Shown here: positions 14,829-23,943 of the stretch, in pieces | Layout: every line of letters starts with the position of its first letter | How positions within the stretch are numbered: the stretch's first letter is position 1 | Assembly (NCBI GenBank): GCA_003152455.1 | Contig: PMAF01000314.1 | Span: 1-58,049 of the forward strand | From: Hyphomicrobiales bacterium | Lineage (GTDB): Bacteria; Pseudomonadota; Alphaproteobacteria; Rhizobiales; Xanthobacteraceae | DNA length: 58,049 bases | Reading direction: 5' to 3' | Notes under the pieces: model-generated | Told to the model about the DNA's origin: nothing | What the model saw: the letters and a program-made list of their open reading frames with translations, nothing else | Databases searched by the model: none | Position numbers and translations under genes: made by a program

Positions 14829-16484
14829 ATGCACGCAATCGACTTTCAGACCGAGCCGTCGCGCTACCGCCACTGGCGCATCGAGCCCGAAGGCGACGTC
14901 GCCTACTTGATCATGGACGTCGATCAGGCCGGCGGATTATTCGACGGCTATGAGCTCAAGCTCAATTCCTACGACCTCGGGGTCGACATCGAGCTCAACG
15001 ACGCGGTGCAGCGGCTGCGCTTTGAGCATCCAGAGGTGCGCTGCGTCGTCATCAAGTCAGGCAAAGACAATGTGTTTTGCGCCGGCGCTAATATCCGCAT
15101 GCTCGGCAAGTCGACGCATGCCCAGAAGGTGAATTTCTGCAAGTTCACCAACGAGACGCGGTTCGCCATCGAGGACGCGTCCGAGAATTCCAAGCAGACT
15201 TATCTCTGCGCCATCAATGGCAACGCCGCCGGCGGCGGCTACGAGCTGGCGCTCGCCGCCGACCACATCATGCTGGTGGACGATCGCCGTTCGGCGGTCG
15301 CGCTGCCAGAAACGCCGTTGCTCGCGGTGCTGCCAGGCACCGGCGGGCTCACCCGTGTCACCGACAAGCGCAAAGTAAGGCGCGACCGCGCCGACGTGTT
15401 CTGCTCGATCGAAGAGGGCATCCGCGGCACCAAGGCGGTCGAATGGCGGCTGGTGGACGAGGTAGTGCCCAATTCGAAGTGGAAAGACGCGGTGGCCGCG
15501 CGCGCGCACGAAATGGCCGCGCGCTCGGACCGGCCGAAAAACGCCAAGGGTATCGCGCTCACTGCGCTCGACCGCAAGATCGACGGCGACCGCGTCGCCT
15601 ATTCGCACGTGGACGTGGAAATCGACCGGGCGCGCGGGCTGGCGTCCGTCACTGTGCGTGGGCCCTCGCAACCGGCGCCGGCGTCGATCGAAGCCGCGCA
15701 CGCGCTCGGCGCCAAGTTCTGGCCGCTCACGGTGGCGCGCGAGCTGGAAGACTCCATTTTGCATTTGCGCGCCAACGAACAATCCATCGGCGTCCTGCTG
15801 CTTCGCACCGAAGGCGATACGAAAGGCGTGCTCGATCACGACGATTTCCTCGCCAAGACGAACGGCGACTGGCTGATGCGCGAGATTCGCCATTACCTCA
15901 AGCGCGTGCTCAAGCGCGTGGACGTGACGCCGCGCAGCATCATAGCGCTGATCGAGCCGGGCTCCTGCTTTGCCGGCACGCTGGCGGAACTGGCCTTTGC
16001 CGCCGACCGCTCGCTGATGTTGGTCGGCACCCGCGCCGGCGACAACCGGCCGCCGGCGGCGATCACGCTGGGTGAGGCCAATTTCGGTTGGTATCCGATG
16101 GGAAATGGGCTCACGCGTTTGCAATCCCGCTTCCTCGGCGAACCGGAGCAGGTCGGGCACGTTAAAGAGAAATCCGGCCAAGCCATCGAAGGCGAAGCCG
16201 CCGCGGACCTTGGCCTAGTCACGCTGGCCTACGAGGATTTCGATTGGAACGACGAATTGCGCGTCATGCTGGAGGAGCGCGCGAGCTTCTCGCCCGACGC
16301 CATGACCGGCATGGAAGCGAACTTGCGCTTCGCCGGCCCTGAAACCATGGAAACCAAGATCTTCGGACGGCTGACCGCCTGGCAGAACTGGATTTTCCAG
16401 CGGCCGAACGCGATCGGCGAACAGGGCGCGCTGAAACTCTACGGCAGTGGCGTGTCGCCGACTTTCAATAAGGAAAGGGTGTGA
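14829..16484 (+). CDS. boxC: 2,3-epoxybenzoyl-CoA dihydrolase
   Basis: LKLNSYDLGVDIEL, FCKFTNETR, AGGGYELALA, LPGTGGLTR, LTAWQNWIFQRPNA. Confidence 0.96.
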   Translation: MHAIDFQTEPSRYRHWRIEPEGDVAYLIMDVDQAGGLFDGYELKLNSYDLGVDIELNDAVQRLRFEHPEVRCVVIKSGKDNVFCAGANIRMLGKSTHAQKVNFCKFTNETRFAIEDASENSKQTYLCAINGNAAGGGYELALAADHIMLVDDRRSAVALPETPLLAVLPGTGGLTRVTDKRKVRRDRADVFCSIEEGIRGTKAVEWRLVDEVVPNSKWKDAVAARAHEMAARSDRPKNAKGIALTALDRKIDGDRVAYSHVDVEIDRARGLASVTVRGPSQPAPASIEAAHALGAKFWPLTVARELEDSILHLRANEQSIGVLLLRTEGDTKGVLDHDDFLAKTNGDWLMREIRHYLKRVLKRVDVTPRSIIALIEPGSCFAGTLAELAFAADRSLMLVGTRAGDNRPPAAITLGEANFGWYPMGNGLTRLQSRFLGEPEQVGHVKEKSGQAIEGEAAADLGLVTLAYEDFDWNDELRVMLEERASFSPDAMTGMEANLRFAGPETMETKIFGRLTAWQNWIFQRPNAIGEQGALKLYGSGVSPTFNKERV

Positions 16485-16486
16485 TC

Positions 16487-17935
16487 ATGAACATCGTTCA
16501 GGTCGACTACGACGGCTTGATCCCGAACAATGTCGGGCTCGGGGAAGACGTCCGCGTCAAGCACGCGCTGGAGAAGTGGCACCCTGGCTACATCAACTGG
16601 TGGAACGACATGGGGCCGGAGGGTTTCCAGGAGTCGCTCGTATATCTGCGCACCGCGATCAGCGTCGACCCCAAGGGCTGGGCCAAGTTCGATTACGTGC
16701 GCATGCCGGAATACCGCTGGGGCGTGCTGCTGGCGCCGCAGCACGAGGGCCGCAAGATTCCGTTCGGCATGCACAAGGGTGAGGACGCCTGGCAGGAAGT
16801 GCCTGGCGAATACCGCGCCATGCTGCGCCGCTTGGTGGTGATTCAGGGCGACACCGAGCCGGCCTCGGTCGAGCAACAGCGCTATCTCGGCAAGACCGCG
16901 CCGTCGCTCTACGACATGCGCAACCTGTTCCAGGTCAATGTGGAGGAGGGGCGCCATCTTTGGGCGATGGTCTATCTGCTGCAGAAATATTTCGGTACCG
17001 ACGGCCGCGAGGAGGCCGAAGCCCTGCTGCAGCGCCGCTCCGGCGACCCCGACACGCCGCGCATGCTGGGCGCCTTCAACGAGAAGACGCCGGACTGGCT
17101 GTCGTTTTTCATGTTTACCTATTTCACCGACCGCGACGGCAAGATGCAGCTCGAGGCGCTGGCGCAGTCCGGCTTCGATCCGCTGTCGCGCACTTGCCGT
17201 TTCATGTTGACCGAGGAAGCGCACCACATGTTCGTCGGCGAGACCGGCATCACCCGCATCATCCAACGCACCTGCGAGGCGATGAAGGAGGCGGGCATCA
17301 GCGATCCAAATGAAATAGAGAAAGTGCGCAAGCTCGGTGTGATCGACCTGCCGACCATCCAGAAAAAAGCCAACATGCATTTCTCGTTGACGCTCGATCT
17401 GTTCGGCAACGAGATCTCGACCAATGCCGCCAATGCCTTCCACTCTGGTCTCAAGGGCCGTTACCGCGAAGATCGGCTCAAGGACGACCACCAGCTCGAG
17501 GGCGGCACCTATCCGGTGCTACGCCTGATCGACGGCAAAATCCAGAACGAGGATTCGCCGGCGCTTTCGGCGCTCAACATGCGGCTACGCGACGACTATG
17601 TGGTCGACTGCAATGTTGGCGTTGGCCGCTGGAACAAGATGATCGCGGAGCACGGAATTCCGTTCGAGATCAAGCTGCCGCATGTCGCCTTCCACCGCCA
17701 TATCGGCGAGTTCACCAATATCAAGGCCGATGTGAGCGGCAATGTGCTCAGTGACGCTGAATGGGCAAAGCGGCGGGGCGAATTCCTGCCCTCCGACGGC
17801 GACAAAGATTTTATAGAAAGCCTGATGCAGCCGCAGATGGAGCCGGGCAAGTTCGCCAGTTGGATCGCGCCGCCGCGGGTCGGCATCGACAACAAGCCCG
17901 GCGATTTCGAATATGTGAAGATCGCCGATGCTTAA
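16487..17935 (+). CDS. boxB: Benzoyl-CoA 2,3-epoxidase diiron subunit
   Basis: IPNNV, QGDTEPASVEQQ, diiron ExxH motifs VEEGRH and TEEAHH, FTDRDGK. Confidence 0.96.
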   Translation: MNIVQVDYDGLIPNNVGLGEDVRVKHALEKWHPGYINWWNDMGPEGFQESLVYLRTAISVDPKGWAKFDYVRMPEYRWGVLLAPQHEGRKIPFGMHKGEDAWQEVPGEYRAMLRRLVVIQGDTEPASVEQQRYLGKTAPSLYDMRNLFQVNVEEGRHLWAMVYLLQKYFGTDGREEAEALLQRRSGDPDTPRMLGAFNEKTPDWLSFFMFTYFTDRDGKMQLEALAQSGFDPLSRTCRFMLTEEAHHMFVGETGITRIIQRTCEAMKEAGISDPNEIEKVRKLGVIDLPTIQKKANMHFSLTLDLFGNEISTNAANAFHSGLKGRYREDRLKDDHQLEGGTYPVLRLIDGKIQNEDSPALSALNMRLRDDYVVDCNVGVGRWNKMIAEHGIPFEIKLPHVAFHRHIGEFTNIKADVSGNVLSDAEWAKRRGEFLPSDGDKDFIESLMQPQMEPGKFASWIAPPRVGIDNKPGDFEYVKIADA

Positions 17936-22902: not shown

Positions 22903-23381
22903 GGCGCCACACCTTGCGCGTTGAGCGCGGCAGCGTATTTCACCGCTTCGATGATCTTCACGTAGCCGGTGCAACGGCAGATATTGCTGCCGAGCGCTTC
23001 GATAATCTCGGCCTCGTTCGGGTTCGGAATTTTCCGCAAGAGTCCGGCCGAAGCCATGATGAAGCCCGGCGTGCAATAGCCGCATTGCGAGCCGAGCTTT
23101 TCGTGAAAGCCGCGCTGCACGGCGGAAAGCTGCCCATCGGTCCCAAGCGACTCGATGGTGTCTACGCGCCGCCCTTGCACGGTTGCTGCAATCGTCAGGC
23201 AGGATAGCGCCGGCTTGTCGTCGATCAGCACCGTGCAGGCGCCGCATTCGCCGCCGTCACAGCCAGTCTTCGTCCCGGTAAGCCCTACTTTTTCGCGCAG
23301 GAAATCAAGCAGCAGGATATTATCGGCGACCGCGTCGGTGCGGTCACGCCCATTGAGCGTGAACTCAAGAAGCCGGGTCAA
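22899..23381 (-). CDS. hcrC: 4-hydroxybenzoyl-CoA reductase gamma subunit (2x[2Fe-2S])
   Basis: [26 protein letters not shown]; TTG start after GGGAAG. Confidence 0.92.
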
Positions 23382-23520
23382 AAACGTTTCTTCCCTGTAC
23401 GGCGCCTGTTGAGCGATTCGCGCTTCGTCTGATTATTTCGTTACGACACACCAGCGCGCCGACCCCCTCCAGACCAATTACCGGGAATGGCTAGGACGAT
23501 TGGCCGCGGTCCTCAGGCGA

Positions 23521-23943
23521 TTAGCCAAATCGGGCAACGACATCGCTCGGAATGGCGACGCCGCCGATCTTGTCGGGATTGTCCTTGTCACGCGCCGTCC
23601 ATACCCGCGTCTCGGCCCCGTCCACCCCCAGTTTCCCGCCGACGGTTAGCTGGTGTTCGACATCGAAGCTGGAGCGGCGAAACTCGGTCACCCGCGAGGC
23701 GATTTCCACCACGTCGCCGAATTTTATGGGTTTCAGAAAATTGGCGCGCGCATCCACCAGTGGAATGCCGATAATGTCGAAGCTTTCCGCCAGCTCATGC
23801 GCGGTCACGCCGAGTGCTGCTTCGAACAGCATCCAGGTGCTGACGTCGAACATCTCGAAAAAACGGCTGTTGAACACGATGCCAGCCGGATCGCACTGGC
23901 CCCATTCGACGGTCAATTGTCTGCGGAATGTGAAAGACGCCAA
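23521..23943 (-). CDS. Acyl-CoA thioesterase, 4HBT-I hotdog family
   Basis: VEWGQCDPAGIVFNSRFF catalytic Asp motif, PLVDARANFLKP; TTG start at 23943 after GGAGA. Confidence 0.88.
   Translation of the reverse strand: MASFTFRRQLTVEWGQCDPAGIVFNSRFFEMFDVSTWMLFEAALGVTAHELAESFDIIGIPLVDARANFLKPIKFGDVVEIASRVTEFRRSSFDVEHQLTVGGKLGVDGAETRVWTARDKDNPDKIGGVAIPSDVVARFG

Follow-up and report, generated by a model that had tools for sequence, protein, structure and literature searches.

A lineage of 4-hydroxybenzoyl-CoA reductase genes linked to box genes in peat Xanthobacteraceae, and a candidate mixed route for 4-hydroxybenzoate

Gene organization of the hcr and box genes

Among the compounds formed when lignin and other plant phenolics are broken down, 4-hydroxybenzoate is a major one, and its degradation is classically split between an aerobic route through PobA and protocatechuate and an anaerobic route through 4-hydroxybenzoyl-CoA reductase (4-HBCR; Hcr) and benzoyl-CoA reductase (BCR). 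In this study, contig PMAF01000314.1 (58,049 nucleotides; the whole stretch is referred to as the window), from the metagenome-assembled genome (MAG) of a Xanthobacteraceae bacterium, was analyzed. The open reading frame (ORF) map and family scans revealed a thioesterase-hcrC-hcrA-hcrB-ligase string on the minus strand that runs head-on into boxC-boxB, and the gene order and identities given in an original prediction, made from the sequence alone, were thereby borne out. The overlapping stop codons that it described were also present: the TAA of boxB (17933-17935) and the stop codon of the ligase (TTA on the plus strand, 17932-17934) share the palindrome TTAA at 17932-17935. Its statement that ring reductase and dienoyl-CoA genes are absent held for the window, in which family scans detected none. 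From these sequences, we lean towards the reading that the window carries a second type of HcrCAB (type 2, defined below), accompanied by an aryl-CoA ligase of its own and a thioesterase of the 4HBT type, which together would form a dedicated Hcr-to-Box route for 4-hydroxybenzoate. The genes concerned are as follows:

14829-16484, plus strand: boxC, 2,3-epoxybenzoyl-CoA dihydrolase; TIGR03222, 926 bits (cut-off, 712)
16481-17935, plus strand: boxB, benzoyl-CoA 2,3-epoxidase diiron subunit; TIGR03225, 886 bits (cut-off, 499)
17932-19539, minus strand: lig2, aryl-CoA ligase of the benzoate-CoA ligase family; TIGR02262, 729 bits (cut-off, 375)
19553-20572, minus strand: hcrB (type 2), FAD/[4Fe-4S] beta subunit; TIGR03195, 411 bits (cut-off, 404.6)
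20569-22902, minus strand: hcrA (type 2), molybdopterin alpha subunit, 777 amino acids; TIGR03194, 1157 bits (cut-off, 994.6)
22899-23381, minus strand: hcrC (type 2), 2x[2Fe-2S] gamma subunit; TIGR03193, 236 bits; Pfam Fer2 and Fer2_2
23521-23943, minus strand: hotdog-fold acyl-CoA thioesterase of the 4HBT type; Pfam 4HBT and 4HBT_2, both above cut-off

The start of hcrA was assigned to the ATG at 22902, which overlaps the stop codon of hcrC as ATGA; the longest ORF (892 amino acids) over-extends. The thioesterase gene has a TTG start codon preceded by GGAG.

Two Hcr lineages in one genome

The host genome (4.75 Mb in 314 contigs, 96% complete; G000, with the window as contig C87) is related to Pseudolabrys-like Xanthobacteraceae. 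A second hcrCAB was found on contig C241, where it adjoins an HbaA-type ligase gene (lig1; 850 bits), and bcr-dch-oah-had genes are located ~6-13 kb downstream. The latter belong to a complete Thauera-type class I BCR cluster (bcrCBAD-dch-had-oah), all genes of which score above their cut-offs and which also holds a korA-like 2-oxoacid:acceptor oxidoreductase gene. This BCR-linked Hcr lineage is referred to as type 1 and that of the window as type 2 (Hcr2). The genome therefore has two Hcr paralogues with two partners, type 1 beside lig1 and bcr and type 2 with box, of which the type-1 copy fits the family models better (alpha, 1320 bits; beta, 510 bits; gamma, 282 bits). PobA is encoded at C187:4727-5893 (NF006091, 589 bits; TIGR02360, 540 bits against a cut-off of 538.7), boxB is present as a single copy, and no AFOR/BamB-type gene of a class II reductase was detected in the host genome (its relatives were not searched for class II). 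Since BCR is encoded on C241 and PobA on C187, BoxBC is the only benzoyl-CoA consumer of the window, as originally predicted, but not of the genome, and the PobA/protocatechuate route need not be bypassed. The original prediction had named a complete BCR pathway outside the window as one half of a contrary outcome, and the genome has one. The host can probably run 4-hydroxybenzoate in three ways: by PobA, by Hcr1 and BCR, and by Hcr2 and Box. Between the HbaA-type ligase gene and hcrC of C241, there is also a gene for a 758-amino-acid ADP-forming acyl-CoA synthetase-like protein (CoA-binding and ATP-grasp; L009 9984-12260).

The window and C241 copies share 63, 50, and 63% identity in the alpha, beta, and gamma subunits, respectively, and their associated ligases share 53%. 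Against the crystallized Thauera enzyme, the alpha subunits gave 983 bits (type 2) and 1021 bits (type 1) with 1RM6_A and the beta subunits 273 and 300 bits with 1RM6_B; by these scores, both copies are about equally close to it. The four cysteines of the [4Fe-4S] loop in HcrB2 all aligned with C122, C138, C146, and C155 of 1RM6_B, and it is by this insertion loop that 4-HBCR differs from the xanthine-oxidase-family hydroxylases. HcrB2 carries an extra 13-residue insertion. The catalytic Glu of HcrA2 is kept in GAKEAGEG, aligned with the G-x-K-G-x-G-E of other family members in the host genome. Large subunits of the xanthine oxidase family have many paralogues across this genome, with 35 matching stretches distributed over more than 12 contigs, and one such gene, located on C187, is split and contains an in-frame TGA.

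Type 2 was monophyletic in the maximum-likelihood trees of both HcrB (support, 100/100) and HcrA (support, 95/100). The midpoint-rooted tree of HcrB, which is the only one with the Thauera sequence, places the type-2 clade on a long stem (0.64 changes per site) between the Thauera enzyme and Rhodopseudomonas Hba-type homologues, and in the HcrA tree, type 2 is outside the clade of type-1 and other sequences. The two types do not overlap in their TIGR03194 scores, type 1 giving 1255-1385 bits and type 2 giving 1088-1176 bits. The Hcr of the window looks like a distinct, divergent paralogous lineage of true 4-HBCR. Its three subunits, gene order, and adjacent aryl-CoA ligase are as in HcrCAB from Thauera aromatica (1RM6/1SB3) and HbaBCD from Rhodopseudomonas palustris, and the loop cysteines and catalytic Glu of the Thauera enzyme are retained. 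On the other hand, it differs from both systems in forming a separate, monophyletic, long-stemmed lineage with an insertion in the beta subunit, in being linked to boxCB and a thioesterase gene instead of bcr/bad, and in being the only Hcr of many genomes without a ring reductase.

The conserved loop bears on the direction of the reaction. The complex may instead hydroxylate benzoyl-CoA to 4-hydroxybenzoyl-CoA, from which the thioesterase would free 4-hydroxybenzoate for PobA and protocatechuate. This is highly improbable because HcrB2 keeps the reductase-specific [4Fe-4S] loop and because linkage is with box and not with pobA/pca, PobA being encoded on another contig, in spite of the coherence of a ligase, Mo enzyme, and 4-hydroxybenzoyl-CoA-type thioesterase in that direction, of the presence of PobA in 48/51 genomes (see below), and of the fact that most members of the family are hydroxylases. 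Furthermore, the reaction of characterized 4-HBCR is irreversible, and, to our knowledge, there is no precedent for a nucleophilic hydroxylation at an unactivated para C-H.

The substrate of type-2 Hcr was considered from the associated ligase and thioesterase. The lig2 protein gave 525 bits against benzoate-CoA ligase (BCL) 2V7B, and its aryl-pocket motif is GSTELLQTF (L-Q-T), while that of the crystallized BCL 2V7B and BadA 4EAT is GSTEMLHIF (L-H-I); Q-T stands where the ligase of the Box pathway has H-I. The Q/N-T pair is kept in 62 lig2 orthologues. The pocket motif of lig1 and the hba-adjacent ligases of Rhodopseudomonas is G-H-L (HbaA type), and a third ligase of the benzoate-CoA ligase family, encoded on C65 (about 478-1464), has the canonical L-H-I motif and is probably the true benzoate-CoA ligase of the organism. 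Therefore, lig2, with its L-Q-T pocket, is neither a standard benzoate ligase nor of the HbaA type despite its subfamily score with TIGR02262. In mutant work on BadA, the His-Ile pair of the pocket reportedly restricts substituents at the para and meta positions. For the thioesterase, the best matches among solved structures are the 4-hydroxybenzoyl-CoA thioesterases 5WH9 (E 1.9e-12) and 1BVQ/1LO7 (E 8.4e-11), although the similarity is weak (45-51 bits), and its score is below the cut-off of the NCBIfam YbgC/FadM model. It carries the N-terminal Asp in a CDPAGIV motif, like the 4HBT of the 4-chlorobenzoate pathway from Pseudomonas sp. CBS3 (1BVQ/1LO7); in contrast to that pathway, there is no dehalogenase here, and in the proposed route hydrolysis of a pathway intermediate would be counter-productive save as a CoA-recycling valve.

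These features leave some room for a different substrate, such as 3,4-dihydroxybenzoyl-CoA, vanilloyl-CoA, or a hydroxyphenyl-acyl-CoA, the product of which would not necessarily be benzoyl-CoA. The ligase pocket is unlike those of BadA and HbaA, hcrC is under its equivalog cut-off, identity with type 1 is just 50-63%, the type-2 clade has a long stem, and HcrB2 carries the 13-residue insertion; Thauera strains also dehydroxylate protocatechuoyl-CoA to 3-hydroxybenzoyl-CoA. However, the match of HcrA2 to the Thauera enzyme is nearly as strong as that of HcrA1 (983 and 1021 bits), HcrB2 is placed between that enzyme and the Hba-type homologues, and the nearest solved relatives of the thioesterase act on 4-hydroxybenzoyl-CoA. 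BoxBC, to which the genes are linked, has no known substrate other than benzoyl-CoA, and this also argues against a different substrate for Hcr2, a reading that we consider distinctly improbable.

Linkage and co-occurrence of type-2 hcr and box genes in relatives

The loci of 80 species-level relatives carrying type-2 hcrA (83-95% identity) were compared with the window. Nearly all loci of sufficient length retained the thioesterase-hcrCAB core, and boxB was located <10 kb from hcrA2 in 37 of the 65 loci with enough flank, usually together with boxC, boxR, and the gene for a ferredoxin-NADP+ reductase (FNR). In 14 loci, boxD (NF008868, 722-766 bits) is found between the ligase gene and boxB (e.g., L018 14965-16734 and L027 14970-16544), and other loci contain insertions of unrelated genes. 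In a member of another genus (L100; G071:C17:9000-27000), boxR adjoins a boxC-boxB-boxD-lig2 string in one direction, which is convergent with type-2 hcrC-hcrA-hcrB. The linkage between hcr2 and box is maintained through rearrangements and is not frozen synteny. The TTAA stop overlap of the window is at the place occupied by boxD in the 14 relatives described above.

When hcr2 is not linked to box, its neighbours encode MFS transporters, an aldo-keto reductase, and a histidine kinase and provide no clue to the substrate. In type-1 loci from 80 further genomes, an HbaA-type ligase gene adjoins hcr and bcrB is common; box genes are within 10 kb in only two. One complete Rhodopseudomonas-like genome (L099; G373:C1:733000-750000) has a type-1 hcr/hba cluster with an HbaA-type ligase gene, separated by 3 kb from boxC-boxB and by 14 kb from the bad/bcr genes for the reductase, and no box genes were found within 10 kb of hba in R. 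pseudopalustris DSM 123 or R. palustris BisB18.

The whole genomes of 50 relatives, which had been picked for carrying type-2 hcrA and were enriched for box-linked loci, had the following gene contents (Oah was used as a class-independent proxy for ring reduction):

Type-2 hcrA: 50/50
boxB: 50/50
bcrB: 16/50
oah: 17/50 (the bcrB genomes and one in which a contig end truncates the cluster)
Type-1 hcrA: 15/50, all with bcrB
PobA-like: 47/50 (48/51 including the host genome)

Thirty-three of these relatives are without both BcrB and Oah, and type-2 Hcr is their only Hcr, although bcrB, oah, and hcrA1 share one island and are, therefore, not independent markers, and absences in MAGs are imperfect. 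In an even sample of 401 Xanthobacteraceae genomes, in which two hcrA candidates were scored per genome and absences are, therefore, unsafe, the types were distributed as follows:

Type 1 only: 29 genomes, BcrB in 27 and BoxB in 25
Type 2 only: 23 genomes, BcrB in 1 and BoxB in 22
Both types: 7 genomes, BcrB in 7 and BoxB in 7

The single BcrB-positive genome with type 2 only (70% complete; hcrA 6 kb from bcrB) is probably misclassed. The original prediction had proposed a survey of hcr-box co-localization in genomes without BCR, and such cases were found: G411, a near-closed, 98% complete genome (3 contigs) from the genus of the host, carries type 2 as its only Hcr, has boxB at a distance of 4.7 kb, and lacks BcrB. 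The dN/dS values of hcrA2 against BCR-less relatives were 0.05-0.13, which were close to those of boxB; hcrA2 is under purifying selection in relatives without BCR. Most carriers lack BCR, which leaves Box as their only known sink for benzoyl-CoA, and the pairing of hcr2 with box in relatives without a ring reductase suggests a mixed low-oxygen route. The proposed coupling of Hcr to Box was sharpened in this way into a property of the type-2 paralogue (boxB in 50/50 relatives, linkage in several genera, and sole Hcr in 33/50), while the premises of the original prediction regarding the host genome failed.

The source of the MAG is peat, an oxygen-fluctuating habitat, and near-identical DNA is present in many peat metagenomes. 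A search for protein homologues returned only near-identical soil and peat relatives, which added no context, and thousands of sequence clusters from soil and peat contain the type-2 lineage. Four peat/wetland metatranscriptomes contained contigs with 95-100% identity (about half with at least 99%) to both hcr2/box and hcr1/bcr, the two being covered to a similar depth; the long flat contigs of one run (X25) suggest DNA carry-over.

The nearness of hcr2 to box may also have arisen without dedicated coupling. Hcr2 would then feed a common benzoyl-CoA pool, used here mainly with BCR under anoxia, and the neighbourhood would reflect the clustering of CoA-dependent aromatic genes with a common ligase and benzoyl-CoA sensing. 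The complete BCR pathway of the host fits this explanation, as do the convergent gene strings without a detected common operator (see below), the unlinked loci in G044-G050 and many genera of the family sample, the type-1 hcr 3 kb from boxCB in one Rhodopseudomonas genome, and the occurrence of both clusters in the same metatranscriptomes. It does not readily account for the lack of BcrB in 33/50 relatives (in which Oah is also missing) and in 22/23 family genomes with type 2 only, or for the strong purifying selection on hcrA2 where no anaerobic sink exists. Moreover, BCR-positive genomes carry a separate type-1 Hcr beside bcr (type 1 in 15/50 and bcrB in 16/50), and the linkage of type 2 to box persists through rearrangements, including one in which the ligase gene has moved into the box operon. 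We consider an undedicated neighbourhood unlikely as an explanation.

Box module, candidate electron supply, and proposed route

Upstream of boxC, the window contains the following box-associated features:

13762-14667, minus strand: boxR, BoxR/BzdR-type regulator; NF006015, 387 bits (cut-off, 204); Pfam HTH_31 and SKI
12688-13713, minus strand: thioredoxin-reductase (TrxR)-type FNR, 341 amino acids; 598 bits over the full length to PDB 5YGQ; Pfam Pyr_redox_2
12358-12681, minus strand: [2Fe-2S] ferredoxin, 107 amino acids; Pfam Fer2 (PF00111), E 2.4e-11
14685-14696, boxR-boxC intergenic region: perfect palindrome GCATTATAATGC, candidate BoxR operator; direct reading of the sequence

BoxR consists of an XRE helix-turn-helix and a shikimate-kinase-like domain, boxR is divergent from boxC, and the ferredoxin gene is the last of the boxR-fnr-fdx string. 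The palindrome resembles the TGCA-N6-TGCA motif described for BoxR/BzdR (PMC6449761). At up to 2 mismatches, the window contains one copy of GCATTATAATGC, and one match is likewise expected by chance; TGCA-N6-TGCA had zero matches in the window. No BoxR-like operator was found upstream of hcr2, with nothing like GCATTATAATGC at up to 2 mismatches before the thioesterase gene or hcrC. This operator search neither supports nor excludes the co-regulation of hcr2 and box.

No boxA was detected in the genome (the best TIGR03224 match was CysJ, 73 bits against a cut-off of 459), and tblastn with the BoxD of a relative (NF008868, 766 bits) found no boxD in the genome, only generic aldehyde dehydrogenases with 27% identity or less. 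FNR accompanies boxR-boxCB in nearly all box-linked related loci (80-97% identity), as does the ferredoxin; the FNR/ferredoxin pair is a plausible replacement for the absent BoxA, and the ferredoxin is a candidate electron carrier for BoxB and/or Hcr. Because there is no boxA and the Hcr-like flavo-iron-sulfur complex contains FAD and Fe-S centres, it might itself be the reductase partner of BoxB and not a dehydroxylase. We find this barely credible: the Mo-binding alpha subunit and catalytic Glu are fully kept under purifying selection, the ferredoxin/FNR pair directly beside boxR-boxCB is a simpler replacement for BoxA, and hcr2 is unlinked to box in several genera.

As compared with the Box pathway (BoxABCD, BclA, and BoxR) of Azoarcus/Aromatoleum evansii and Burkholderia xenovorans, the window has boxB and boxC with scores well in excess of the cut-offs, a BoxR/BzdR-type regulator gene that is divergent and accompanied by a TGCA-type palindrome, and a benzoate-CoA-ligase-family gene and thioesterase gene nearby; it differs in the absence of boxA and boxD from the host genome and the presence of a TrxR-type FNR and [2Fe-2S] ferredoxin beside boxR.

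In the dedicated Hcr-to-Box route, lig2 would activate 4-hydroxybenzoate, and type-2 Hcr would, as its family membership implies, remove the para-hydroxyl group with reduced ferredoxin to give benzoyl-CoA. Judging from linkage and co-occurrence, benzoyl-CoA may then de-repress BoxR and induce boxCB. BoxB would epoxidize the ring with one O2, presumably being reduced through the FNR/ferredoxin pair because BoxA is absent, and BoxC would open the ring, after which a non-BoxD aldehyde dehydrogenase would have to complete the step in the host genome. By analogy with the thioesterases of box and paa clusters, the thioesterase may serve as a safety valve that frees CoA when O2 or reductant is short. 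The sequences establish gene identities, conserved cofactor ligands, paralogy, linkage, co-occurrence, and purifying selection, whereas all biochemical steps of the route are inferred. Since the benzoyl-CoA pool of the host would be shared with the anaerobic BCR pathway, the Hcr2-Box route would be optional there.

Several points weigh against this route. The host genome contains complete BCR, Dch, Had, and Oah genes as well as PobA, and Hcr2 is, therefore, not required to account for growth on 4-hydroxybenzoate here, while its product could enter BCR. The absence of boxA and boxD makes the Box branch non-canonical, its function being itself deduced. The hcr2 operon converges on boxCB and is not co-transcribed with it, a common operator was not found upstream of hcr2 as described above, and hcr2 and box are unlinked in larger-genome relatives (G044-G050) and in several genera. 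The score of hcrC is slightly below the cut-off of 257.8, yet this is the best match by 70 bits. Among the family genomes, BoxB is present in 57 of the 62 that are HcrA-positive, including most of those with type 1 only; because BoxB is this common and its base rate in the family was not measured, co-occurrence alone is weak evidence. The metatranscriptome contigs cover hcr2/box and hcr1/bcr about equally and do not discriminate between them. Characterized 4-HBCR needs low-potential ferredoxin and is oxygen-sensitive, properties that count against its use by an aerobe.

The original prediction knew of no characterized pathway with this coupling. That was too strong: for 3-(4-hydroxyphenyl)propanoate in Aromatoleum aromaticum EbN1, a presumptive reductive dehydroxylation is common to oxic and anoxic growth, and benzoyl-CoA enters box with O2 (PMC9765128, 2022). 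The logic is the same as that of the route proposed here, although EbN1 is a BCR-containing denitrifier and its dehydroxylation step is presumptive; the available excerpts of that paper describe no dedicated Hcr paralogue, hcr-box linkage, or ring-reductase-less carriers. SAR324 bins contain ligase-boxB-boxC plus hcr and a thioesterase, between which the authors draw no connection (PMC4782131). In our full-text literature search, neither linkage of hcr with box genes nor an Hcr paralogue associated with box was described in any paper. The concept of reductive dehydroxylation feeding box is anticipated by PMC9765128.

A wider proposal, which we regard as tentative and rather doubtful, is that type-2 HcrCAB is oxygen-compatible and evolved as the regular entry of an aerobic CoA-dependent 4-hydroxybenzoate pathway in abundant ring-reductase-less soil/peat Xanthobacteraceae. 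This dehydroxylase and the BoxA-less BoxB would both receive NADPH electrons through FNR and the [2Fe-2S] ferredoxin, and cleavage of the ring of this lignin-derived phenolic would use one O2 instead of the two of the PobA/protocatechuate route. The attraction of the Hcr-to-Box route is that one O2 is used per ring against two for PobA and a dioxygenase, and it would allow instant switching in peat with fluctuating oxygen. If this is true, reductive dehydroxylation is also part of aerobic/micro-oxic carbon turnover, "hcr" genes are no longer safe metagenome markers of anaerobic aromatic degradation, and the enzyme is a molybdenum dehydroxylase that may tolerate oxygen and be useful for lignin monomer conversion.

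One further ORF is located directly upstream of the thioesterase gene:

23981-24652, minus strand: conserved ORF, 223 amino acids; no Pfam/NCBIfam match

It is syntenic in most close relatives, with 65-96% identity. A hopanoid biosynthesis block (shc, hpnE, hpnD, hpnC, and hpnB; 6187-12267) lies directly upstream of the box module, and the region downstream of the hcr module (25051-31452) contains cysJ, cysI, and a gene for a 966-amino-acid NirA-family protein with a long N-terminal extension.

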